Origin: Bacteroidota bacterium
GTDB lineage: Bacteria > Bacteroidota > Ignavibacteria > Kapaibacteriales > UBA2268
Assembly (NCBI GenBank): GCA_017428585.1
Contig: JAFRQN010000154.1
Coordinates: 1 to 46,559 of the forward strand
Length of the DNA: 46,559 bases
Reading direction: 5' to 3'
In this document: positions 4,740-45,467 of the stretch, one piece after another
Numbering within the stretch: the stretch's first letter is position 1
How the letters are laid out: each line of letters opens with the position of its first letter
The notes under the pieces: model-generated
Database searches by the model: none
What the model was told of the DNA's origin: nothing
What the model saw: only the letters and a program-made list of their open reading frames with translations
Made by a program: the position numbers and the translations under genes

Positions 4740-5228
4740 TTAATAATTATCTAAATCGTGCAGCATTAAATTTAATTGTTCAAAAAATCTATTTACATTT
4801 ATATTGTCGCATATATCATTATGCCTTGCGCTTTCTGCATAGTCAAAATCCACGCAGTACCAGCATGACTTGCAAACCGTGCATTCTTCACATTCAAAAC
4901 AATTCTTGCAGCTACTGCATTTATAACATTTCGTGCATCCATCACACGCAAGACAACCTATGCAGTCTCTGCAAGTGCTTAAGCATCTTCCTGTGTTGCA
5001 ATTATGGCAATATTCGCATTTATAGCATTCATCGCAATCTGAGCATTTGTAACAATTAAAACAATTTACATTATTAAATTTATTTAAGTAATCTTTATAC
5101 TCTTCAAAATCTAATAGCCAATAATCTAAAAATTCTTGAGTACAACCATTTACTTTTTTTGTTTTTATATCTTCTAACCATTCTTCTTTATCTTTATATA
5201 AAACAAGAGGGATTTCTGGATTATTCAT
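4740..5228 (-). CDS. Cysteine-ladder (C-x2-C)n repeat protein, paralog 2
   Basis: The track ORF starts at a TTG. The ATG at 5228 (MNNPEIP) is preceded by GGAGTAAAA. Motif VNGCTQEFL...FEEY, then 25 Cys. Confidence 0.75.
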   Translation of the reverse strand: MNNPEIPLVLYKDKEEWLEDIKTKKVNGCTQEFLDYWLLDFEEYKDYLNKFNNVNCFNCYKCSDCDECYKCEYCHNCNTGRCLSTCRDCIGCLACDGCTKCYKCSSCKNCFECEECTVCKSCWYCVDFDYAESARHNDICDNINVNRFFEQLNLMLHDLDNY

Positions 5229-5559
5229 TTTTACTCCTTTTTCTTGGTACAATATTTTTTTGATAGTTTAATTTAATGCTTTTGTTTCTCTGTCTCCATT
5301 CATCAAAACATTCTTTCACAGCTTCAAGGAGTGCGTCTCCATTTAATAAATCGTAACACTTCATTCTGTTTATTTTGTCTTGAATAATAGAAGCAAATTT
5401 TTCATGTTCTCTAACATAAGCAACAGCAAATAATTTTTCTGGCATTTCTATTTCATTGTCCAGAATCATTTGGCACAAAGGACTTTCTTTTTGAGCGTTT
5501 ACTTTAGCTTGTCCAATTTGATATGTAATAAAAACATATCCTTCATTTTCATAACACAT
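5221..5559 (-). CDS. Hypothetical protein
   Basis: 112-aa ORF behind the promoter at 5597-5604. Confidence 0.5.
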   Translation of the reverse strand: MCYENEGYVFITYQIGQAKVNAQKESPLCQMILDNEIEMPEKLFAVAYVREHEKFASIIQDKINRMKCYDLLNGDALLEAVKECFDEWRQRNKSIKLNYQKNIVPRKRSKNE

Positions 5560-29637: not shown

Positions 29638-30258
29638 ATGAGTTTAGTATTAGATAAAATAAAAGGCAGTATGCTTTTATTGCCTATAACGTCAGTTCGT
29701 TTTTATTCTGATCCAGTAATTTCAAATAACACAATAACAGGCTACACAAATGATTTAACTATTTTGTATCCAGAACAGGAGAGCAGTTATTTATTTACGA
29801 AATTAGGCAATAAAAACAGCAAAGGAACATACGTAAATTATGGTTGGAATTTTGAATTGATTGTTTACGTTCCTAATAACAATTTTTATAAAGATACAAC
29901 AGAAGCTCAATTAAATGGTTTAGGTTATGATATGTTATTAGAATTAAAAAAACTAATGAATTATGGTAGTTGTTTATTAGATTTAAGACTTGGCAATGTT
30001 CCTGATGGTTCTCAATCATTAGTTGATGAGACTTTGCCTATGGGCGACCAAGAAGCGCCAACAAATATAAACTTTTCATTGCTTAGAAAAATTATAATTA
30101 AAAATGGTTCTATTGGTTATGATGTAGAACATACTGAAATACGTCCGCGCACAAAAATAACATATAATGCTTTTATTACAGATTTAACTAATAGTAATGA
30201 AATAGAATACACAGGCACGAAATATGTAGACAATGAAGAGCCAGAAGAAACTACATAA
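29638..30258 (+). CDS. Hypothetical tail-module protein
   Basis: The track start is 29620. The ATG at 29638 (MSLVLDK) follows GGGAGG and lies 2 nt after the upstream stop. Confidence 0.5.
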   Translation: MSLVLDKIKGSMLLLPITSVRFYSDPVISNNTITGYTNDLTILYPEQESSYLFTKLGNKNSKGTYVNYGWNFELIVYVPNNNFYKDTTEAQLNGLGYDMLLELKKLMNYGSCLLDLRLGNVPDGSQSLVDETLPMGDQEAPTNINFSLLRKIIIKNGSIGYDVEHTEIRPRTKITYNAFITDLTNSNEIEYTGTKYVDNEEPEETT

Positions 30259-30494
30259 AAATACGTTTTATTTTTGATTTAAGAGCATTTTGTTATTTAT
30301 CTAATAAAATATATCAAAAAAGAATAAAAATTGAATGTATGCAAAATAAACAATAAATTTTTACGTTTTAGAATAATTGCAACAATAATAACAAAAATTT
30401 TTAATAAAATTAAAAAATAATTTTATTTTTAATTAAAAAATTGTTATTTTTGTATATAACTAATTAACAATTTTTATTAACTATACTAAAAAAT

Positions 30495-30517
30495 CCTGCC
30501 GCGTTTGGAGGGGTAGG
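30495..30517 (+). ncRNA. Conserved-loop hairpin HP1
   Basis: CCTGCC-GCGTTTGGAGG-GGTAGG. Confidence 0.6.
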
Positions 30518-30762
30518 CTGAATAAACATTTAATTTTAATAATCTGTTTTTTTTGATTTATATTTCATCAACATTGAATGCTTAGAATAAAATAGCTTAA
30601 ATTCTTTTTAGGTTATGAAAGTATTTTGAAGTAATATGAAAGATATTAGAAAAGACTAAGAGATGTTTATAAGGAAGATTTTTAATAACAATAGTAAATT
30701 AGTTGTGTGTGTGAAAATAGTCAGGCGCAGTGAGTATCTGCGCCTATTATTCCACAAAATAT

Positions 30763-30837
30763 CGCGGGGTGGTGTAATTGGTAAACACGCGAGGCTGTGT
30801 ACCTTGTTAGCTGGGAGTTCGAGTCTCCCCCCTGCTA
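30763..30837 (+). tRNA. tRNA-like gene 1, anticodon position GTG (His-like), atypical
   Basis: Hand-folded cloverleaf: D arm GTGT/ACAC with a GG loop, anticodon stem CGAGG/CCTTG with loop CTGTGTA, T arm GGAG-TTCGAGT-CTCCC. C1xT72 mismatch, T at position 37, no encoded CCA. Confidence 0.55.
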
Positions 30838-30873
30838 CGAATTTAATTAATGATTGTTTAATAAATATAAAAT

Positions 30874-30896
30874 CCTGCCGTGTGCGGAGGGGCAGG
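30874..30896 (+). ncRNA. Conserved-loop hairpin HP2
   Basis: CCTGCC-GTGTGCGGAGG-GGCAGG. Confidence 0.6.
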
Positions 30897-31038
30897 TGTA
30901 TTGAGTTATAATAACATTAATTATTTTTTTTAGACATAAATAATCAAATAATTCTTCAATTTAATATCATACTAATTTTAGTATGATATTTTTTTTATTC
31001 TGCAATAAGAATTATTTTGTAATTAATTAAAAAAGTAT

Positions 31039-31261
31039 TATTTTTGTATTGTCTTTAGACATTAGGTTTGATAGGTTTAATGTAACGACAACACAACATG
31101 ATAAGGAGAATGCTTAGGAGGGTCGGCGTTCTCCTTTATTTATTTATAACATAGCGGGGTGATGTAATTGGTAAACATAGCAGGGTGGTTGCTTGCTTAT
31201 TGTAGGTTCGAATCCTTCCTCCGCAACAAAAAATTTACTTTGTATTTTAATAAAAAAGAAT
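31039..31261 (+). ncRNA. Noncoding unit b carrying tRNA-like 2
   Basis: -7 box at 31039-31046, stem AAGGAGAA/TTCTCCTT at 31103-31136, then the tRNA-like gene. No hairpin terminator before the next promoter. Confidence 0.4.
31153..31226 (+). tRNA. tRNA-like gene 2, anticodon position GGT (Thr-like), atypical
   Basis: Same 5' half as gene 1 (GCGGGGTGnTGTAATTGGTAAACA). Anticodon stem GCAGG/CTTGC with loop GTGGTTG, T loop TTCGAAT. A1xA72 mismatch, one T-stem mismatch, T at position 37. Confidence 0.5.
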
Positions 31262-31425
31262 TAATTTTGTAGTATAATTAAATTATGTTTAACTAATTAA
31301 AATCGCGCCGTGTTTGGAGGGGCGCGTGGTTTGGTTTGACATACTATCTACCTATAAAAATTTATTATAAAATTAACTTTTTGTTTTAATTAAATATCAT
31401 ACTATTCCAGTATGATATTTTTTTA
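31262..31425 (+). ncRNA. Noncoding unit c with hairpin HP3
   Basis: -7 box at 31262-31269, GTTTAACTAATTAA box, HP3, and terminator at 31394-31425. Confidence 0.55.
31304..31326 (+). ncRNA. Conserved-loop hairpin HP3
   Basis: CGCGCC-GTGTTTGGAGG-GGCGCG. Confidence 0.6.
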
Positions 31426-31466
31426 TTATAGAATAAGAATTATTTTGTAATTAATTAAAAATGTAT

Positions 31467-31643
31467 TATTTTTGTATTACAATTAATTTAATATGTTTAA
31501 CTAACTAAATTCGTACCGTGTTTGGAGGGGTACGTGTGTTGGTGTTTGGATAAACATAACTACCTGTTAATATTATTTAGTTTTATTAAATTAGAATTTT
31601 CTTGAATTTCCTTAAGATGGATAAATAATTTATCCATCTTTTT
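31467..31643 (+). ncRNA. Noncoding unit d with hairpin HP4
   Basis: -7 box at 31467-31474, GTTTAACTAACTAA box, HP4, and terminator at 31615-31643. Confidence 0.55.
31512..31534 (+). ncRNA. Conserved-loop hairpin HP4
   Basis: CGTACC-GTGTTTGGAGG-GGTACG. Confidence 0.6.
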
Positions 31644-31797
31644 ATATTAGAATTCCCAAAACAAAAGGTGCAGGTGGTTGCTCTTCTGCATCTATAAAAT
31701 ATAATTTTTCATATTTATAATAAAATTAAATTATTAAAAATAGTATTAGACTTATTTTTATTCTTTAGCAATAGATTAAAATTCTATTGCTTTTTTT
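31644..31797 (+). ncRNA. Noncoding segment e with an anticodon-arm-like hairpin
   Basis: TGCAG-GTGGTTGCTCTT-CTGCA at ~31670-31691, and terminator AGCAATAGA/TCTATTGCT+T6 at 31767-31797. No canonical promoter seen. Confidence 0.3.
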
Positions 31798-31822
31798 ATT
31801 TTGTTATTGATTAAAAATATAT

Positions 31823-32023
31823 TATTTTTGTATATAAATTTTTTCGTAATTAACAATTTTTTTAACTATTAATTTCCTTGTAATAGGGACTTCTTACAGA
31901 AGAGTTATACGTAGAAAAAGAATATAACTAATGGTAGAATTAAAGTGTTAAAGAAAAATTTTGTAATGTAGTAAAAAAAAGAAAAAAGGGATGTTAGAGA
32001 GGTTTTATGCCTCTCTTTTTTTT
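31823..32023 (+). ncRNA. Noncoding unit f
   Basis: -7 box at 31823-31830 and terminator AGAGAGG/CCTCTCT+T7 at 31996-32023. Only ORFs of 6 codons or fewer. Confidence 0.45.
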
Positions 32024-32066
32024 CTAAAAATTTACAAAAAAATTTTATTTTTAATTAAAAAATTAT

Positions 32067-32478
32067 TATTTTTGTAATATATTTGATTTTCAAATTGACT
32101 GATTCATAAGAGGTGGTTGTTACAGCTCGCCGCCTCTTATACTGGCAATAATTATTATTTATTGTATAGATTATAACTTAAAAATTGCGTTCCTTTTTTA
32201 TTTAAGTTATCATTGTTTACAGCTCACTTTATGAAATTTTTTGGCTGGTTCATGTGTGAGTTAATGAAAAAGAAAAAGAGACAAGTTTTTTTTGTGTTTC
32301 CTCTTATTTAGCTTGTCTCTTATCTTTTAACTAAGACAGCAATATTTTTTTAATTCTTATATAATCTTTAAATAATTTTTTCATATACTTTTAACATTAT
32401 TTGTTTATAAAAATTTATTTTTTGATATACTTTTGATTTTTTCATGGATAACAGAACCTATTTAGGTTCTGTTTTTTT
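32067..32478 (+). ncRNA. Noncoding unit g (or micropeptide unit)
   Basis: -7 box at 32067-32074, 11-bp stem at 32106-32140, 10-bp stem at 32276-32321, terminator at 32451-32478. Contains a 26-codon ORF at 32231-32311. Confidence 0.4.
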
Positions 32479-32523
32479 ATGCAATAAGAATAAAAATTAT
32501 TTTGTTTTTAATTAAAATTTTTG

Positions 32524-32776
32524 TATTTTTGTATTACAATTAATTAACATTTTTTTTTACAAATAATTTTTTATATTTCTATTAAATCTATACATAAATA
32601 TATTTTAATATGTTATTTGATATCCTGCTTTATCTATTACTCAGTGCCAATTAAATAAGTTTATCATAATAGAAAAGCAAAAAATGTTATTAAATGTAGT
32701 TAATATATATAAAATCATCCAGAATAATAATGAGCAACAGAATTATTAAAAAAATTTAATAATTCTGTTTTTTTAT
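32524..32776 (+). ncRNA. Noncoding unit h
   Basis: -7 box at 32524-32531 and a 12-bp-stem terminator at 32736-32776. Only ORFs of 14-21 codons. Confidence 0.4.
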
Positions 32777-32791
32777 TTGCTCCAGAATTTA

Positions 32792-32901
32792 TATTTTTGT
32801 ACAATAATTAACTATTTATTCAAAATTTCAATAAAATGGTTTAATTTTTGATTCAGTATTATTTATATATCTTCAAGCAGGATGCCTCTCCTGCTTTTTT
32901 T
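32792..32901 (+). ncRNA. Noncoding unit i (~95 nt)
   Basis: -7 box at 32792-32799 and terminator AGCAGGA/TCCTGCT+T6 at 32876-32901. The only ATG opens a 2-codon ORF. Confidence 0.5.
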
Positions 32902-32935
32902 ATATAAAAAGTTTTGTTATTTGAAATAAAATTAT

Positions 32936-33094
32936 TATTTTTGTATATAATTATTTTTGTTTAACTAATTAAATAATAATTGCTTATCAATTTTATTTAT
33001 TTAACTCTCAAATTATATAAAGACTTAAACATAAATAATTGCAAGTGTTCGGCTAATTGGAAATTTAGGGAAGCAAAAACTTCCCTTTTTTTTT
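32936..33094 (+). ncRNA. Noncoding unit j (~140 nt)
   Basis: Tandem -7 boxes at 32936-32943 and 32952-32959, GTTTAACTAATTAA box, terminator GGGAAG/CTTCCC+T9 at 33068-33094. No ATG in the unit. Confidence 0.5.
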
Positions 33095-33114
33095 GATATT
33101 TATTAAAAATTTAT

Positions 33115-33193
33115 TATTTTTGTTTACAAGATATAGATTCATTGAAGTAAAAAGGAAAATTTGAAGCAATAATTTTATATTATTGCTTTTTTT
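33115..33193 (+). ncRNA. Noncoding unit k (~65 nt)
   Basis: -7 box at 33115-33122 and terminator AGCAATAAT/ATTATTGCT+T6 at 33165-33193. No ATG. Confidence 0.5.
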
Positions 33194-33218
33194 ATTTGTA
33201 AATAATCCAGGAAATATA

Positions 33219-33301
33219 TATTTTTGTACTGCCTTTATAAAAATATAAATTTTAATAGCTCTGATAAGATGGGACGGTATGCCTAACCGTCCCAATTTTT
33301 T
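33219..33301 (+). ncRNA. Noncoding unit l (~70 nt)
   Basis: -7 box at 33219-33226 and hairpin GGGACGG/CCGTCCC followed by AATTTTTT at 33271-33301. Confidence 0.45.
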
Positions 33302-33316
33302 AAAATTTTCGGCTTC

Positions 33317-33625
33317 CCAAGACCGAGACTGGTTCGCGGCACTCGTGGAAACCATCAGTCGTATGCATCCGATACGAGACTACTTAAAAGCGCCGGGTCT
33401 ATACCTTCTGCATTACACGTCTATACTCGATACTACTAAAAAACATCGAATTTTTTGGGTCTCCAAGACCGAGACCGGTTCGCGGCGAGCGCGGTTTCAT
33501 CCCCCTTCTCATCCGAGACTCGGTGTTACCCGAGACTTCTTAAAAGCGCGGTTCTTGACTTCCTGCAATACTAAGATTTACTGGATACTACTAAAAAGCA
33601 TCGAAAAAATGCCAAAAAATCCGAA
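33317..33625. repeat. GC-rich island A: two tandem ~150-bp repeat units plus a partial third
   Basis: CCAAGACCGAGACyGGTTCGCGGC at 33317 and 33463. GAGACTwCTTAAAAGC at 33376, 33532 and 33703. GATACTACTAAAAArCATCGAA at 33429 and 33584. Confidence 0.7.
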
Positions 33626-33640
33626 AAAATGGGTCAAAAA
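33604..33640. other. Four helically phased A-tracts (predicted intrinsic DNA bend)
   Basis: A6 at 33604, 33614 and 33624, and A5 at 33636, giving a 10-12 bp period. Confidence 0.6.
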
Positions 33641-33650
33641 TTGTGGTTGT

Positions 33651-33670
33651 CCCCCCCCCGCACCCCCCCC
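33651..33670. repeat. Paired homopolymers C9-GCA-C8
   Basis: CCCCCCCCCGCACCCCCCCC. Slippage-prone, with G-quadruplex / i-motif potential. Confidence 0.7.
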
Positions 33671-33785
33671 AAGTTTTTTCAAAAAAAGTCCCGCTGTTGC
33701 CCGAGACTTCTTAAAAGCAGTATTTCTATACTCTCTGCGAAACTATACTTAAAAATAAGACTTTGCTATACTTAAAGAATATACC

Positions 33786-33814
33786 AAAAAAAAAGCACGC
33801 TCAATGCGTGCTTT
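33786..33814 (-). terminator. Terminator of cysteine-ladder gene 3
   Basis: AAAGCACGC-tcaat-GCGTGCTTT with a T-run on the minus strand. Confidence 0.7.
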
Positions 33815-33830
33815 GACCAAAGAAAAAATA

Positions 33831-34376
33831 CTACAAATATTTGTAAACTAATCTGCGTTTAATTAATTTAGAATCATACAGGTTGATTTTTCTTGCTCTG
33901 TTATAATTTAGCAGGCTGTCAATATAAGCGTTGCTGCACATTTCGGCGTTATTGCAGAAATTGCAGTTATTACAGCAGTAACAATTAGTGCAGGCTTCGC
34001 ATTTATAGGACATTTCGCAATTAAGGCAATGTTCGCATTTGATGCAGTTATAAATATTTACGCAGTCGTAATTGCCGTAAGATTTAGAGGCGTTGTTGCA
34101 TTTTATGCAATCTATGCAATTAATACAGGACATACAGGACGCACAGCATTCACAATAGGAGCATTTGACGCAGTCTGTGCAGTTTTTACAATTATAACAA
34201 TTAAAGCAATGAAAATTATTTTGATTTAGGTTTTCGTATTCTTCAAGGGTTAAATTTGCCCAATTTAGGAAATCTTGCGTTACGCCGTTTATTATATATT
34301 TCCAGTTCCATTTTTTATATTCTTTAAATTCGTTATAATCTTTAAATAATAGAGTTTTGATTTTATATTTTAACAT
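33831..34376 (-). CDS. Cysteine-ladder (C-x2-C)n repeat protein, paralog 3
   Basis: 181 aa. Motif INGVTQDFL...LEEY, then 27 Cys. Leader is ATAGGAATTAAAAATT-ATG. Confidence 0.8.
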   Translation of the reverse strand: MLKYKIKTLLFKDYNEFKEYKKWNWKYIINGVTQDFLNWANLTLEEYENLNQNNFHCFNCYNCKNCTDCVKCSYCECCASCMSCINCIDCIKCNNASKSYGNYDCVNIYNCIKCEHCLNCEMSYKCEACTNCYCCNNCNFCNNAEMCSNAYIDSLLNYNRARKINLYDSKLIKRRLVYKYL

Positions 34377-34399
34377 AATTTTTAATTCCTATAAAATTT

Positions 34400-34435
34400 T
34401 AATAAAAGATACAGGAGAGGCTAATCCTCTCCTGT
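34400..34435 (-). terminator. Hairpin overlapping the stop of cysteine-ladder gene 4
   Basis: ACAGGAGAGG-ctaat-CCTCTCCTGT, followed on the minus strand by a T-rich stretch. Confidence 0.5.
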
Positions 34436-34918
34436 TAATATATAATGGTATAAATCGACCATTTTATTTTTTAATTTAATATTAGAAATTTCGTTTCCAT
34501 ATTTTACATTTGTGCAATTTTTGCTTTTGCGGAGCGTTTCGCATTTTTCGCATTTTGTGCAGTCGTCGCAGTCTTCACAATCGGTGCAAAAACTCGCTCT
34601 TTTACAATAGAAGCATCTAATATCAAAGAAGCAGTAATGACAACCTATGCAGTCATCGCAATCTTGGCAATTAAAGCAATTATGGCAAGATTGGCAATTT
34701 ATGCAATCTTCGCAACCCATGCAGTTCCAGCAATAGTAGTTTGTTTCGTTGAACTTTTGGTAAAGTTCGAAAGAGAGGAGATAATTTTTTAAGAAAAGCT
34801 CGGAGCATCCGTTTATTTTTTCGTTCGGATGATATTCAAGGTAATTTTGAAAATCCTCATAGCTTTCAAAAATTTTAGTTAAAAATTTTTGTTCAGAATT
34901 GTTTTGTTTTTTCAGCAT
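34421..34918 (-). CDS. Cysteine-ladder (C-x2-C)n repeat protein, paralog 4
   Basis: The track ORF begins at a TTG inside the promoter. The ATG at 34918 (MLKKQNN) follows ATAGGAATTAAAATT. Motif INGCSELFL, then 22 Cys. Confidence 0.75.
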   Translation of the reverse strand: MLKKQNNSEQKFLTKIFESYEDFQNYLEYHPNEKINGCSELFLKNYLLSFELYQKFNETNYYCWNCMGCEDCINCQSCHNCFNCQDCDDCIGCHYCFFDIRCFYCKRASFCTDCEDCDDCTKCEKCETLRKSKNCTNVKYGNEISNIKLKNKMVDLYHYILTGED

Positions 34919-34959
34919 AATTTTAATTCCTATAAAATTTGATTTTCGAAAAAGAGTTG

Positions 34960-34980
34960 TATTTTTGTAATACAAAAATA
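34960..34980. promoter_or_regulatory. Palindromic bidirectional promoter (TATTTTTGTAATACAAAAATA)
   Basis: Plus-strand box at 34960-34967 and minus-strand box at 34973-34980. Confidence 0.55.
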
Positions 34981-35652: not shown

Positions 35653-36000
35653 ATGCAAAGTACAGAAAAGAGATTTATTTGTTTAAGACGTGGGATTTTT
35701 ACACGCAAGCCTTATATAGTAACAGAAAAAGCCACTCTAAGATTAAACAACACATTAAAAGGAGATTTCCCTATGGTTTTTAATTTAGCATTATTAAAGA
35801 CAAAAGATGCTTTTTATTTTGAGCAATATATAAAAAGCAAATTAAAGGGAATAAACGAATACGATTACCCAGTAAATTACATAATACGATTATTTATGGA
35901 ATGTTGGGATATGTCAAGTGATGGCGAATTAAAGATAGGAGATAAAAAAGCAGTTAACAAACCAAGATATACAGTAGAGGAGGGTTTAGTATGTTTATAA
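35653..36000 (+). CDS. Hypothetical protein
   Basis: 115-aa ORF with leader ATAGGAATTAAAACA-ATG. Confidence 0.55.
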   Translation: MQSTEKRFICLRRGIFTRKPYIVTEKATLRLNNTLKGDFPMVFNLALLKTKDAFYFEQYIKSKLKGINEYDYPVNYIIRLFMECWDMSSDGELKIGDKKAVNKPRYTVEEGLVCL

Positions 36001-39699: not shown

Positions 39700-40028
39700 A
39701 AGACTTCCTGTAACTTTTCAAAATTTTAACTACAAAAGTTCGAAAGTATACATAAATCCCCTCATTCCATGCACTTTTTTTACGATGCGAGCCAATACGC
39801 CGCAAAGCGAACCCCTTTAACCTTCTTGTTTTGTTAGAGTTACGTTTTCGCTTTTTTTGACCGCTTTTTTCATTGAGGCGGGAGCGGGCGGGAGCGGACT
39901 GCTTTGGACAAGGAGCAGGACGCCCGCACGACTGCCGCCGATATGAGGGCGGGAACAAATTTAGTGCAGTTCACGAGAGCGGATGGGAAAGAAGCAAGTT
40001 GAAGGTAGTATCTGCACGCCGCCAGGAA

Positions 40029-40062
40029 GCAGGGTCATTGGGAAACCCAGCGACTAGCGGCG
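40029..40062 (+). repeat. 34-nt direct repeat, copy 1 (extended hairpin)
   Basis: GCAGGGTCATTGGGAAACCCAGCGACTAGCGGCG. Inner TGGG-aaa-CCCA and GGTC/GACC pairings, with outer CGCCGC/GCGGCG. Confidence 0.7.
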
Positions 40063-40149
40063 ATGCAGAGCTTGATGACAAAGGGTGGGGAACCAAAAAC
40101 ACAATACAAATAAAATAAAAAGATGTTTGTTTTTTTCGAAAAAAAGTAT

Positions 40150-40157
40150 TATTTTTG
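40150..40157 (+). promoter_or_regulatory. -7 promoter box preceded by a T7-CG-A7 palindrome
   Basis: TTTTTTTCGAAAAAAAGTATTATTTTTGTAATAT. Fires into GC-rich island B2. Confidence 0.6.
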
Positions 40158-40164
40158 TAATATA

Positions 40165-40849
40165 AAAATAAGCGACTGGGAGCGCGGCGCGGCGGCAGGC
40201 TTTTCCTCCAAGCCGAACGACACGACGACGCTCCCAGAAGCCAAAAAGCACGAGATTTTGTCCAATCCTTCCCTTCGATACTTTACACTCTCACAGGGTT
40301 GGAATACTTCGATACTAAGTCTCGGGCAACAGCGGGAAGCGGGGTGGGACAAGGTAAACTAAAGCGAGGCGGTCCCTGCACCGCCGAGCGGACTCCCTGT
40401 TCGTTTGGAAGTAAAATGTTTGGGAAATAGAGTAGGCGGGCTGCCGCACGCCTGCAAGAGTACGCATTCAGGGCAACGTGTTTATAAACGCATCGGTCTG
40501 ATGCGTTGCGTGTAGGCGGGCGAAGGGCACGCCTGCGAACAAAGGGGCGTCCTCTTGGGGGTGGGACTGAGAAACTTCAAGGCTTCGCCCCAGACGATGG
40601 CAATCGTCAAAGGACTTGCTTCAATCCGATACTTTTACAAAGCACTTGGATTTTGCACGATTCACACACTTAAGCGCAAGCAGGCGAGAAATTGAGTTAA
40701 TTCGATAGTTGATAGATAATTTGCCGTCCGCCGGGAGCAGGGTCATTGGGAAACCCAGCGACCAGCGGCGGCGGCTAAGCGAACGAGCGAAACGAATGTG
40801 GAGCGAGTGAGCGACAGCAATCATTTTTATTTTTTTACAGGATTTAATT
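40165..40849 (+). ncRNA. GC-rich structured RNA / ~680-nt leader upstream of the hsdMS operon
   Basis: No credible ORF. Stems: 40176-84/40229-37, 40368-85, 40432-55, 40488-506, 40512-36, 40544-49/40586-91, 40593-608, 40728-70. Confidence 0.45.
40737..40770 (+). repeat. 34-nt direct repeat, copy 2
   Basis: Identical to copy 1 except for one base (T to C). Outer stem here is CCGCCG/CGGCGG. Confidence 0.7.
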
Positions 40850-44768: not shown

Positions 44769-44976
44769 ATGTCAAGAATGTAAAGTTACATTTGAAGATT
44801 ATAATGAGTTAAAAAAAAACTTTTCATTAACAGACTGCTATATGTGTAAATTAGCATTTTTTACGTGTTATCCTTTTAATTTAGCAGTTTCACGTTATAA
44901 AGAAGAATATAAATTAGAAGTATTAAATAAAATTTTTACAGTATATAAGAAAGTTAAAGGGAGAATTAAAGAATGA
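44758..44976 (+). CDS. Small zinc-ribbon protein, paralog Z4
   Basis: Likely start is MMNKCQEC (track start 44737). CQEC-x19-CYMCKLAFF. Confidence 0.5.
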   Translation: MMNKCQECKVTFEDYNELKKNFSLTDCYMCKLAFFTCYPFNLAVSRYKEEYKLEVLNKIFTVYKKVKGRIKE

Positions 44977-45467
44977 GAACAAAAGTTTTCAATAATTTAG
45001 AGGATTATAAGACATACGTCAAATTAAATCCAGGTACTCTTATAAATGGAGTAACACAAGAATTTTTAGATGATTTTTATGAGTCATCATTAGAGGATTG
45101 CAATTCTGACAATGCAACAAATGAATTATGTTTTAATTGTTATAATTGCAAAGAATGCCATAGATGTATGGAGATGTGGTGTTCTAAATGTTGCAATAAT
45201 TGTTCAGAGTGTACAAATTGTAAAAATTGCAATGACTGCTATGATTGCAGTGAATGCATAGGCTGTTCGTATTGCTGTGAATGTGTAAAGTGTGAGAATT
45301 GCAGCAAATCATTTGAATGTGAGAGTTGTTATTTATGTAAAGGAATTTCAAACTCAAGCAATAGAGCATTTATTAAACATATAGTATTAGATAAAGATGT
45401 AATAGTATTTAATAGTTTATTTAATTTTGTAGAAAATTATAAATGCTATTTATCTGATGTTTTATGA
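44973..45467 (+). CDS. Cysteine-ladder (C-x2-C)n repeat protein, paralog 5
   Basis: 164 aa. Motif INGVTQEFL, then 26 Cys. GGGAG upstream. ATGA overlaps with both neighbouring genes. Confidence 0.8.
   Translation: MRTKVFNNLEDYKTYVKLNPGTLINGVTQEFLDDFYESSLEDCNSDNATNELCFNCYNCKECHRCMEMWCSKCCNNCSECTNCKNCNDCYDCSECIGCSYCCECVKCENCSKSFECESCYLCKGISNSSNRAFIKHIVLDKDVIVFNSLFNFVENYKCYLSDVL

Follow-up and report, generated by a model that had tools for sequence, protein, structure and literature searches.

The 46-kb genome of a phage linked to rumen Bacteroidota contains a protein-free stretch of approximately 2.9 kb, which holds about twelve promoter-to-terminator mini-genes and whose contents include two tRNAs and a four-copy hairpin RNA. 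This array (positions 30416-33301 of the window, the whole 46,559-nt stretch of DNA analysed) lies 3' of the last tail gene, and its 11-12 units are all on the + strand. On balance, it appears to be a cluster of independent small non-coding RNA genes that grew by tandem duplication. Because each unit has a promoter of the host (Bacteroidota sigma-A) type and its own intrinsic terminator, host RNA polymerase alone should suffice to produce discrete RNAs of ~65-540 nt; we infer transcription from these sequence signals. The predicted products are a tRNA-His, an atypical tRNA-Thr, four GGAGG-loop hairpin elements and about six AU-rich RNAs. These last would share the layout of base-pairing sRNAs in Bacteroides: an unstructured 5' part, then a terminator hairpin.

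Relatives of the phage fall into about three lineages from ruminant-gut metagenomes, which are mosaic and 7-13% apart. Across the three lineages the array is colinear: lineage B shares its order of units, lineage C keeps the first unit, and nine further contigs from different samples carry an identical copy. No homologues of the array were found outside this phage group.

Promoters and terminators

The tandem promoter-terminator cassettes proposed in the initial annotation are borne out, with signals far above chance and confined to the + strand; the one exception, at 31644-31797, has a terminator and no recognisable promoter. All 12 of the TAnnTTTG boxes listed there are present (30445, 31039, 31262, 31467, 31823, 32067, 32524, 32792, 32936, 32952, 33115 and 33219). 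In 30259-33301, this motif occurs 16 times on the + strand (4.9 +/- 2.1 expected from 500 dinucleotide shuffles) and never on the - strand (2.4 expected). The bipartite form TTTG-N17-22-TAnnTTTG occurs eight times (0.33 expected) and TATTTTTGTA nine times (0.10 expected). The unit consensus is a -33 TTTG, a spacer of 19-20 nt and a -7 TAnnTTTG. An extended form, TTATTTTTGTA, also precedes protein genes outside the array, on either strand of the phage genome, and is therefore the promoter type at work in this phage and its host. Judged by their spacers, the array promoters form a sub-class apart from the gene promoters: T(T/A)A(T/A)TAAAAA is present in 8/11 of the former and 0/13 of the latter, nine of which have TTC(G/A)AAAA instead.

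The 11 terminators listed in the same annotation are likewise real by consensus scan and folding. The scan returns 10 terminator-like sites, nine of them on the + strand, where 0.6 +/- 0.9 are expected. It misses four AT-rich examples (30964-30997, 31394-31425, 32736-32776 and 33165-33193), each of which folds into a perfect stem of 11-15 bp with a T-run behind it. Across lineages, terminator loops vary and stems stay. Signals of the first units are as follows.

30416-30457, + strand: promoter P1, with -33 TTTA, spacer TTTTTAATTAAAAAA and -7 box TATTTTTG at 30445-30452; kept in lineages B and C
30964-30997, + strand: terminator T1, a 12-bp AT-rich stem and T8, closing unit 1 (~540 nt); stem kept and loop changed in lineage B
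31010-31051, + strand: promoter P2, TTTG-N19-TATTTTTG
31233-31274, + strand: promoter P3, with -7 box TAATTTTG at 31262; 42/42 identical in lineage B
31394-31425, + strand: terminator T3, a paralogue of T1
31438-31479, + strand: promoter P4, a paralogue of P2 (93% over 61 nt)
31615-31643, + strand: terminator T4, found by consensus scan

Duplication is evident at the junctions between units, as had been noticed initially: 30958-31050 and 31388-31478 are 90% identical over 93 nt, with a 61-nt core at 93%. The leaders are paralogous too, as are the hairpin modules and both tRNAs in their 5' halves, in agreement with growth by tandem duplication. Most likely, modules consisting of leader, hairpin, terminator and next promoter were duplicated in tandem and then diverged; their copy number is still changing.

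tRNAs and further units

Two bona fide tRNA matches mark the array as an RNA-gene region. From the sequence, only two units had been seen to bear tRNA-like folds, and the remaining units could not be assigned to any RNA family; an Rfam scan of the array indeed matches nothing beyond these two, and the tRNA model detects no tRNA remnants even at E up to 10.

30722-30746, + strand: GC-rich hairpin (z = -5.3), separated by 16 nt from the tRNA-His downstream of it
30763-30838, + strand: tRNA-His (GTG), 47.5 bits; lineage B has an identical copy (100%), lineage C one with a single change
31103-31136, + strand: hairpin with GGAGGG in its loop, then a T-rich tract, upstream of tRNA-Thr (z = -3.2)
31153-31227, + strand: tRNA-Thr (GGT), atypical, 38.3 bits

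In one relative (L009), the hairpin upstream of tRNA-His differs in sequence, with position and shape kept. The first 24 nt of tRNA-Thr match tRNA-His at 23/24 positions. An 8-mer from the tRNA-Thr anticodon arm, GGTGGTTG, is also present in one hairpin each of two further units; its three copies in the window all lie within the array (0.24 expected). The hairpin at 31103-31136 was considered as a member of the GGAGG-loop family described below and rejected, as the covariance model does not match it. The units beyond T4 are listed here.

31644-31797, + strand: unit lacking any recognisable promoter; hairpin 31666-31693 with GGTGGTTG, terminator 31767-31797; body 97.6% identical in lineage B
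31794-32023, + strand: unit 5; box 31823, ~160-nt AU-rich body, terminator 31996-32023
32038-32478, + strand: unit 6 (z = -3.9); box 32067, hairpin 32106-32140 with GGTGGTTG, hairpin ~32279-32320, terminator 32451-32478
32495-32776, + strand: unit 7; box 32524, AU-rich body (16% GC), terminator 32736-32776
32763-32901, + strand: unit 8; box 32792, terminator 32876-32901
32907-33094, + strand: unit 9; double -7 box (32936, 32952), no ATG, leader homologous to units 3 and 4, terminator 33068-33094
33086-33193, + strand: unit 10; box 33115, predicted ~65-nt RNA without ATG, terminator 33165-33193
33190-33301, + strand: unit 11 (z = -3.0); box 33219, predicted ~70-nt RNA, terminator 33271-33301 abutting a GC-rich island

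No complementarity was found between the predicted array RNAs and the phage's own transcripts, a point against the small-RNA reading.

The GGAGG-loop hairpin family

A 6-bp stem topped by a loop of 11-12 nt, within which GGAGG is invariant, defines a new structured element, present in four copies. The core motif occurs four times in the window (0.02 expected).

30495-30517, + strand: copy 1, stem CCTGCC/GGTAGG, loop GCGTTTGGAGG
30874-30896, + strand: copy 2, stem CCTGCC/GGCAGG; 3' of tRNA-His, not of a promoter
31304-31326, + strand: copy 3, stem CGCGCC/GGCGCG, inside an outer AU stem ATGTTT.../...GACAT (unit z = -4.4)
31512-31534, + strand: copy 4, stem CGTACC/GGTACG

Compensatory changes are seen at four of the six stem pairs, and 100% of 66 cells are paired. 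The covariation score is 0.536, which none of 500 shuffles reaches, vs 0.167, and all slid controls collapse; RNAalifold independently predicts the same hairpin. In lineage B, copy 3 shows a compensatory change (CGCACC/GGTGCG). Because the stems covary, selection on pairing is indicated, and one G-U pair is compatible with a + strand RNA only. The hairpins of units 3 and 4 are enclosed by an outer AU stem. Copy 1 is precisely deleted in lineage B, duplicated in L009 and has the stem CCTCAC/GTGAGG in lineage C, giving zero, one or two hairpins in unit 1 among close relatives.

Divergence among relatives

The same comparisons bear on an unlikely alternative, in which the array is a cluster of RNA genes or "morons" undergoing erosion. 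A tRNA cassette of promoter, tRNA and terminator would have been duplicated and its cargo would since have mostly decayed, leaving most bodies functionless and promoter and terminator shells that persist as young or harmless. Unit bodies are 91.6% identical to those of the nearest lineage, with 9.4 gap columns per 100 nt, where the flanking genes show 87% identity at codon position 3 and 95.5-96.7% at the first two positions. The bodies change almost as fast as synonymous sites, which tempers the small-RNA claim. Individual elements are dispensable, whole ones being lost or doubled among close relatives: besides the changes in hairpin copy 1, a 28-nt deletion in lineage B takes the 5' end of tRNA-Thr (21 nt of the tRNA). 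The shared 5' ends of the two tRNAs, the recurrence of GGTGGTTG and the lack, by folding, of body structure beyond the terminator in units 5 and 7-10 would also be in keeping with decay. However, the 11 promoters, only 64-93% alike as paralogues, keep both boxes and their spacing, and the 11 terminators are all perfect, with stems unrelated in sequence between units; both observations argue for maintained function. The covarying stems require selection on pairing, the body of unit 9 is 119/119 identical in lineage B, and the expected tRNA remnants were not detected by the tRNA model. Since only about three such mosaic lineages, 7-13% apart, are available, purifying selection on unit bodies cannot be demonstrated.

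Genomic context

A decidedly less probable reading is that the array is a cis-acting DNA or transcription device whose RNAs are not its products. It could be a replication origin region, in which an extremely AT-rich tract giving many short primer-like transcripts lies beside iteron-like direct repeats (33303-33720), a sink that soaks up host RNA polymerase, or an insulator whose terminators separate the late operon from the convergent genes at 33831-34975. Several features of the locus fit such a device. The lowest GC content of the whole window (18.8%, at 32-33 kb) falls inside the array, and all units point toward the GC island at 33303-33720 that adjoins its 3' end and carries five copies of an iteron-like 19-nt direct repeat, CGA(G/T)ACT(A/T)CT(T/A)AAAAGC. 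The next protein genes are convergent, and in lineage B promoters (93.4%) and terminators (95.4%) are better conserved than bodies. However, hairpin covariation and tRNAs point to RNA products, and 11 promoter-terminator pairs far exceed the needs of any known origin or insulator. Moreover, cumulative GC skew has no turning point at the array, and no initiator gene was identified beside it.

The hairpins, ~30-45 nt past the promoters, might instead serve processive antitermination in the manner of lambda nut or HK022 put sites, letting RNA polymerase read through the stacked terminators later in infection. Three of the four copies sit 40-48 nt past a -7 box and precede terminators, and a conserved loop on a covarying stem recalls boxB and put RNAs. 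This is very improbable, however, as there is no read-through target (the first protein gene on the + strand comes only at 35653, and the genes that follow the array are convergent), copy 2 follows a tRNA, copy 1 is dispensable in lineage B, and searches turned up no protein resembling N, Q or NusG.

Racr, or solitary repeat units, are RNA anti-CRISPRs (PMC10651486), and the promoter-proximal position of the short structured phage hairpins resembles theirs (PMC10651486). A CRISPR-repeat mimic or other nucleic-acid decoy of host defence would have GGAGG loops that copy the core of 36-nt GTTG...CAAC repeats from ruminant Bacteroidales CRISPR arrays. A scan of GTDB genomes did recover repeats with (C)GTTTGGAGGGG in a rumen Prevotellaceae MAG (L127, six repeats) and a yak Bacteroides MAG (L129), which share 11-14 nt with the array: 14 identical nt (CGTTTGGAGGGGTA) with hairpin 1 and 13 with hairpin 4. 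However, these repeats were chosen for holding the 10-mer, so only about four extra identical bases are informative, and inspection of the sequences reveals no full-length similarity or any outside the core. GGAGGG is a stem arm in the CRISPR repeat and a loop in the phage hairpins. The hairpin covariance model finds no match in CRISPR repeats, no spacer from the L127 or L129 arrays matches the phage, and no cas gene was seen in the DNA examined. That the RNAs serve host takeover or counter-defence, as put forward initially, is a conjecture; the CRISPR-repeat mimic, its one concrete form here, is not supported by covariance model, spacers or fold, and the probability of such a mimic is slight.

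Coding content

The array has a GC content of 19-27%, a composition from which an absence of ORFs is expected. As described initially, a single + strand ORF of at least 60 aa (30663-30911) is present, and it passes through tRNA-His. Units lettered j and k in the initial annotation do lack ATG, as does unit e (31644-31797); units i and l hold ATG ORFs of 2-7 codons, rather than the 2-5 reported. That every cassette codes for a very small protein is scarcely credible: there are short ATG/GTG/TTG ORFs in several units, including 26 codons at 32231-32311, and the GTG codons that follow hairpins 3 and 4 have a GGAGG 5 nt before them, but the 26-codon ORF is not conserved, almost every + strand ORF of at least 10 codons is start-less, stop-bearing or frameshifted in lineage B (with 1-nt indels directly 3' of hairpins 3 and 4), three units have no ATG, and gene callers find nothing in the array gap of any relative. 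The conserved micropeptide ORFs that might have explained the units are therefore rejected, and the stretch is non-coding.

Comparison with known systems

The tRNA regions of phages T4 (with RNAs C and D) and T5 are tRNA-gene clusters with interspersed small stable RNAs. The array is similarly an ORF-poor RNA-gene block of a tailed phage, with tRNAs and small RNAs outside the structural operon. Unlike those regions, only two of its ~12 units are tRNAs and the others match no known family; and whereas T4 and T5 process polycistronic precursors, each unit here carries a host-type promoter and a terminator of its own. Lambdoid and Mu-like phages have morons, autonomous promoter-gene-terminator units that are often found behind the tail genes. 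The array units share this autonomy, flanking signals and placement, but morons are single protein genes, and here ~12 units without ORFs stand in tandem.

The GibS and FopS sRNAs of Bacteroides have a sigma-ABfr promoter, a single-stranded 5' part and an intrinsic terminator, and FopS belongs to a "family of paralogous sRNAs" with 12-15 paralogues per genome, one copy of which is reported in a Caudovirales phage (PMC11697453). Array units resemble them in their sigma-ABfr-type promoter, short unstructured 5' part, intrinsic terminator and multi-copy paralogy. There is, however, no sequence or Rfam match, FopS genes are dispersed in the host chromosome rather than in tandem in a phage, and FopS lacks a structured element like the GGAGG-loop hairpin.

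Sponge RNAs of the CsrB/RsmZ type contain many hairpins that expose GGA in loops. The phage family is comparable in its repeated stem-loops, freely varying stems, invariant short G-rich loop motif and variable copy number, although its copies lie on separate predicted transcripts rather than on one RNA and its motif is GGAGG in an 11-12-nt loop. We know of no CsrA-like partner in the uncultured host. The array looks like a battery of small RNAs, which may have trans-acting roles in infected cells, either regulatory or as decoys; most likely, the multi-copy GGAGG loops would titrate an RNA-binding factor.

Genomic setting and relatives

The window holds the genome of a tailed phage (46.6 kb, ~28% GC) with Mu-like morphogenesis genes (Portal_Mu, Mu F, Mu gp36), a large terminase of the T4 type, recombination genes that include ERF, SSB and VRR-NUC, a glucosaminidase lysis gene, and HsdM/HsdS-type and Dcm methyltransferases. 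One of its proteins is identical to an NCBI protein named 'MAG: Bacteroidetes bacterium'. Several metagenomes contain near-identical contigs of 44.6-47.2 kb, and the names of these records (XIEF21, TONG22, GLEN20, 'Yak', 'Sheep') suggest a ruminant or other animal gut origin. The array, a run of 11-12 promoter-to-terminator units on the + strand, is bounded by the last tail gene (stop at 30258) and by a GC-rich island starting at 33303, and makes up ~6% of the 46-kb genome.

No DNA match was found among cultured phages, and the head protease is only 25-39% identical to those of Mu-like and other phages. Searches of IMG/VR, JGI metagenomes and GTDB genomes yielded nothing similar, and the homologue search with the downstream 181-aa protein was empty. 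Relatives were obtained solely from ENA and Logan assemblies, by way of the flanking proteins.

Table. Relatives of the phage and their coverage of the array
Lineage B (L005-L008): tail protein 72% identical, other neighbours 87-100%; whole array covered
Close relative fragment (L009): tail protein 97% identical; first ~650 nt of the array covered
Lineage C (L011): mosaic; first 675 nt of the array covered
Window lineage (nine further contigs): identical except for one base, 33809 (outside the array), in L014; six whole, three with the right-hand part only

The region of the last tail gene (29638-30413) is a swapped cassette, 72-74% identical in amino acids to lineages B and C between neighbours that are 96-100% identical. 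The 115-155 nt that follow the stop have no counterpart in either lineage, which places an exchange boundary at the first array promoter. Five Cys-rich paralogues matching phrog_15341 (unknown function), genes with 9-nt periodic repeats, are scattered over the window, and two of them flank the array region convergently:
40-489, phrog_15341 paralogue
4740-5252, - strand, phrog_15341 paralogue
33831-34376, - strand, phrog_15341 paralogue
34421-34975, - strand, phrog_15341 paralogue
44973-45467, phrog_15341 paralogue

Promoters and terminators

All twelve of the TAnnTTTG boxes claimed in the initial annotation are present, and its coordinates were confirmed throughout. Between 30259 and 33301 the box occurs 16 times on the + strand, against 4.9 +/- 2.1 in dinucleotide shuffles, and is absent from the - strand (2.4 expected). 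The bipartite Bacteroidota motif TTTG-N17-22-TAnnTTTG is found eight times on the + strand (0.33 expected) and not at all on the other, and the extended motif TATTTTTGTA nine times in the array against an expected 0.10. By sequence, the array promoters have the form of sigma-ABfr promoters, with TAnnTTTG at -7, TTTG at -33 and a spacing of ~19-21 nt; the -33 element is TTTA in the promoters of units 1 and 6 (P1, P6), and P8 consists of the -7 box alone. Sigma-70-type promoters are not enriched (23 vs 26 expected), as is expected for a Bacteroidota host.

Elsewhere in the window the extended motif, with TTTG 19-20 nt upstream, also occurs in intergenic positions before protein genes on both strands (for example 1427, 35591, 36132, 40150 and 43325 on the + strand; 3407, 4699 and 5595 on the - strand). 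It is thus presumably the working promoter type of this phage rather than a quirk of AT-rich sequence, and about half of the phage's recognisable promoters lie within 6% of its genome. The spacers fall into two sets without overlap: T(T/A)A(T/A)TAAAAA, often as the palindrome TTTTTAATTAAAAA, in 8 of 11 array promoters, and TTC(G/A)AAAA, often as the palindrome TTTTTCGAAAAA, in 9 of 13 gene promoters. Either TTTTTCGAAAAA or TTTC(A/G)AAAA stands between the -33 and -7 boxes of protein-gene promoters such as those at 34960, 35101 and 40150 (+) and 34971 (-). The two classes may be explained by shared ancestry of the array promoters, by a separate mode of regulation, or by both, and the palindromes themselves suggest two regulatory classes or operator sites.

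A consensus scan finds ten terminator-like sites in the array against 0.6 +/- 0.9 expected, nine of them on the + strand. Its GC rule leaves out four further AT-rich terminators, which folding reveals as perfect stems of 11-15 bp followed by T-runs. The sites have the form of intrinsic terminators, with a stable stem-loop and then a T-run on the transcribed strand, and their changes between the window and lineage B are confined to loops, the stems being intact.

Coding potential, tRNAs and duplication

Three units contain no ATG, and two contain only ORFs of 2-7 codons. Absence of long ORFs is expected from composition at 19-27% GC and is by itself no evidence. In lineage B, nearly all + strand ATG ORFs of at least 10 codons, including the 26-codon ORF of unit 6, are start-less, stop-containing or frameshifted, and the indels that separate the two arrays (25, 28, 17, 13, 28, 7 and 1 nt) are mostly not multiples of three. 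Single-base indels fall directly after hairpins 3 and 4 of the family described below, where GGAGG followed by GTG might suggest tiny genes. No gene is called in the ~3.2-3.6-kb gap in any relative. Micropeptide genes were therefore rejected, since neither ORF, start nor frame is conserved, and the non-coding reading of the initial annotation is borne out.

ARAGORN and Rfam agree on two tRNAs and find nothing else in the window:
30763-30838, tRNA-His
31153-31227, tRNA-Thr(GGT)

The earlier statements that only two units have tRNA-like folds and that most units fit no RNA family thus hold: searches against Rfam gave no further family at the gathering threshold or at E up to 10, the permissive scan of 30200-34000 yielding noise. 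With two tRNAs and no other match to a tRNA model at E up to 10, the array as a whole is not a tRNA array. Model searches detected no tRNA remnants, only an anticodon-arm similarity of 8-10 nt, GGTGGTTG(CT), in two units. The 8-mer GGTGGTTG has three sites in the window (0.24 expected), all of them on the + strand of the array: in the anticodon arm of tRNA-Thr and in the GC-rich hairpins of unit 6 and of the promoterless unit (31644-31797).

The proposal that the array grew by tandem duplication is also supported. The junction from the terminator of unit 1 to the promoter of unit 2 is 90% identical over 93 nt to that between units 3 and 4, these two units themselves align over 89 nt with 71% identity, and the leader of unit 9 belongs to the same paralogue family. 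The 5' ends of the two tRNAs match at 23 of 24 nt. The tRNA-Thr is atypical (38 bits, an unusual anticodon loop and, on our reading, U at position 37) and looks like a diverged duplicate of tRNA-His. In lineage B (L005, L006) a 28-nt deletion takes its 5' end and leaves a pseudogene, so it is probably dispensable.

A family of GGAGG-loop hairpins

A 31-nt repeat occurs four times in the array, each time with a hairpin, and its core is found four times in the window against 0.02 expected:
30495-30517, hairpin 1, in unit 1
30874-30896, hairpin 2, in unit 1
31304-31326, hairpin 3
31512-31534, hairpin 4

Each consists of a 6-bp stem and a loop of 11-12 nt that ends in an invariant GGAGG. Among copies and lineages the stem takes the forms CCTGCC/GGTAGG, CCTGCC/GGCAGG, CGCGCC/GGCGCG, CGTACC/GGTACG, CGCACC/GGTGCG and CCTCAC/GTGAGG. 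Across 11 distinct sequences, pairing is kept in 66 of 66 cells, with compensatory double changes in four of the six pairs; covariation scores 0.536 (shuffles: 0.167), a value that none of 500 shuffles reaches. Pairing collapses when the partner is slid by 1-3 columns, and RNAalifold arrives unaided at the same helix. Run on the window and its relatives, a covariance model recovers the known copies and nothing more, and an exact hairpin 15-mer matched only GC-rich chance sequences in IMG/VR. Three copies lie 40-48 nt past a -7 box and the fourth ~35 nt past tRNA-His. The hairpins of units 3 and 4 sit within an outer AU stem, ATGTTT.../...(G/A)ACAT, and the unit 3 fold has z = -4.4.

Copy number is labile. 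Hairpin 1 is absent from lineage B through a clean 25-nt deletion, single in the window and in lineage C, and double in L009, where leader and hairpin form a tandem duplication of ~105 nt. Of 14 GGAGG sites on the + strand of the window, five belong to the array; the fifth of these is in the loop of a hairpin before tRNA-Thr. The covarying hairpins constitute a candidate new family of structured RNA motif. Their free stems, invariant G-rich loop and labile copy number suggest an element that binds a ligand or protein, or serves as a decoy, rather than a base-pairing seed. A minority of phage genes use GGAGG as a Shine-Dalgarno-like element (for example before 19284, 29638 and 41000), so that a ribosome-related role of the loops is conceivable.

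A small hairpin, GGCTT-TTCCTCC-AAGCC (40198-40214), lies ~45 nt past the promoter of a second GC-rich island, and its CCTCCAA (40205-40211, loop and 3' arm) is complementary to 7 nt, TTGGAGG, of the array hairpin loops; it could be a kissing-loop partner or a chance match. Tandem CCCCTCC-TTT-GGAGGGG palindromes with a period of 30-63 nt occur in diverse genomes, many of them Bacteroidota (examples at L037, L044, L052, L098, L101, L108, L111 and L142), including Sphingobacteriales, Flavobacteriia, Lutibacter and Tannerella. They are unrelated to the phage hairpin, in which GGAGG lies in the loop.

Divergence of the array

Positions 30414-33450 are colinear with lineage B at ~86% identity, gaps included.

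Table. Divergence between the window and lineage B by array element
Promoters: 93.4% substitution identity; 1.5 gap columns per 100 nt
Terminators: 95.4% substitution identity; 3.1 gap columns per 100 nt
Unit bodies: 91.6% substitution identity; 9.4 gap columns per 100 nt

In 16 flanking genes, codon positions 1, 2 and 3 are 95.5%, 96.7% and 87.0% identical, so that promoters and terminators are conserved about as well as constrained codon positions and the bodies barely better than third positions. The best-kept bodies are those of unit 9 (119/119), unit 10 (37/37), tRNA-His (76/76) and the promoterless unit (97.6%); in mosaic phage genomes such striking conservation may be due to recent exchange. 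The selection test with lineage C was dropped, as flanking genes that range from 48% to 100% amino acid identity make that genome too mosaic to compare rates.

GC-rich islands

Island A (33303-33800), directly after the last terminator, has ~36-50% GC in a genome of 28% GC. It holds five direct copies of a ~19-nt motif, CGA(G/T)ACT(A/T)CT(T/A)AAAAGC (at 33375, 33428, 33531, 33583 and 33702), and a tandem duplication of ~150 nt (33303-33450/33449-33605). A 144-nt deletion in lineage B (~33366-33509) leaves one copy of the motif. As a structured RNA the island was rejected, since it folds no better than shuffles (z = -0.07); as a gene likewise, since its 157-aa ORF (33279-33752), whose ATG lies inside the loop of terminator T11, has no Pfam match and is fragmented in lineage B. 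The repeats could be origin iterons or another protein-binding array.

Island B (39730-40830, ~46-55% GC) is found immediately upstream of the HsdM/HsdS-like methyltransferase genes. After a consensus promoter (40126-40157) it has ~650 nt that hold no convincing ORF, a stretch enclosed by a pair of 38-nt direct repeats with 95% identity (40025-40062 and 40733-40770). The island has no Rfam match.

Nature of the array

The simplest account, and the most likely one, is that the array is a cluster of predicted small non-coding RNA genes with independent signals, each of which host sigma-A RNA polymerase would transcribe from its own promoter. The earlier interpretation is supported in part: the units are non-coding, modular, duplicated and mostly unassignable, while their expression is predicted and a part in host takeover or counter-defence is hypothetical. 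With a sigma-ABfr promoter, a mostly unstructured short 5' part and an intrinsic terminator, the units are built like base-pairing sRNAs known from Bacteroides, such as GibS and the FopS family, which has 12-15 members and of which a phage was reported to carry one copy (PMC11697453). Architecture alone is shared, and Rfam searches at gathering or E-value thresholds indicate no sequence relationship. The unit bodies show no complementarity to the phage's own transcripts, only promoter-to-promoter similarity, so base-pairing targets, if any, would be in the host.

Alternatively, the array may be an eroding tRNA or 'moron' cluster, a possible if unlikely reading to which the near-neutral bodies, the dispensable elements and the tRNA-like remnants lend some weight. 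Erosion fails to account for eleven terminators that are all intact though unrelated in sequence, for promoters whose two boxes persist as their other positions diverge, and for the covariation of the hairpins.

A role in cis, as a replication origin, polymerase sink or insulator, is improbable. It would suit the extreme AT content, promoters and terminators that outlast the bodies, the convergent genes downstream and the five 19-nt direct repeats in the adjoining island, yet it leaves the structured RNAs unexplained, and neither a skew inflection nor an initiator gene was identified.

An elaboration of the RNA-gene reading that we regard as doubtful is that the array acts as an RNA 'decoy battery'. 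Host RNA polymerase would fill the cell with several paralogous hairpin RNAs whose GGAGG, together with GU-rich tracts (GGUGGUUG), would sequester some host factor that binds RNA, and duplication and deletion would tune their copy number in an arms race. The factor might be a defence effector that is guided by RNA or senses it, 16S rRNA at its anti-Shine-Dalgarno end, or a protein that binds RNA globally; the first would draw on a hairpin loop core common to 36-nt CRISPR repeats of ruminant Bacteroidales.

Antitermination sites of the nut/put kind are very unlikely: hairpin shape and promoter-proximal place fit three of the four copies, but there are no co-oriented downstream genes to read into and no antiterminator protein was found.

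Mimicry of CRISPR repeats is a weak lead. A GTDB scan for tandem TTTGGAGGGG led to two genuine CRISPR arrays, one in a rumen Prevotellaceae MAG (L127, RUG14519, reverse strand, ~2173-2536) and one in a yak Bacteroides MAG (L129, Bacteroides sp. RGIG9498, 191-293), which look like type VI-B. Their 36-nt GTTG...CAAC repeats, separated by spacers of 29-30 nt, agree with hairpin 1 over 14 nt and with hairpin 4 over 13 nt, and the repeat core CGTTTGGAGGGGTA is part of hairpin 1. However, the repeats were pre-selected by the scan for the 10-mer, the likeness stops at the core (at most 14 of 36 nt), the fold differs, the hairpin covariance model finds no match in them, and no spacer of either array matches the phage. 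No cas genes lie in the 8 kb around the two arrays. By sequence, the phage array does not qualify as a CRISPR array, mini-array or Racr, as similarity does not extend over the full repeat and the hairpin copies lie 208-430 nt apart instead of 60-75 nt. Type VI is the one CRISPR type for which no solitary repeat units have been reported (PMC10651486).

Set against known systems, the predicted RNA genes would be a new variation on phage RNA-gene clusters and sRNA 'morons', together with a candidate new RNA motif. To our knowledge, phage non-coding RNAs are barely charted, with almost nothing known for phages of Bacteroidota, a phylum in which we know of no Hfq, ProQ or CsrA. If the units are expressed, the array would be among the densest phage sRNA batteries known and a tractable model of how phages use RNAs made by the host polymerase, whether as regulators, decoys or tRNA supplements. 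Units visibly arise and vanish between phages that are nearly identical, which provides a natural experiment in sRNA gene evolution.
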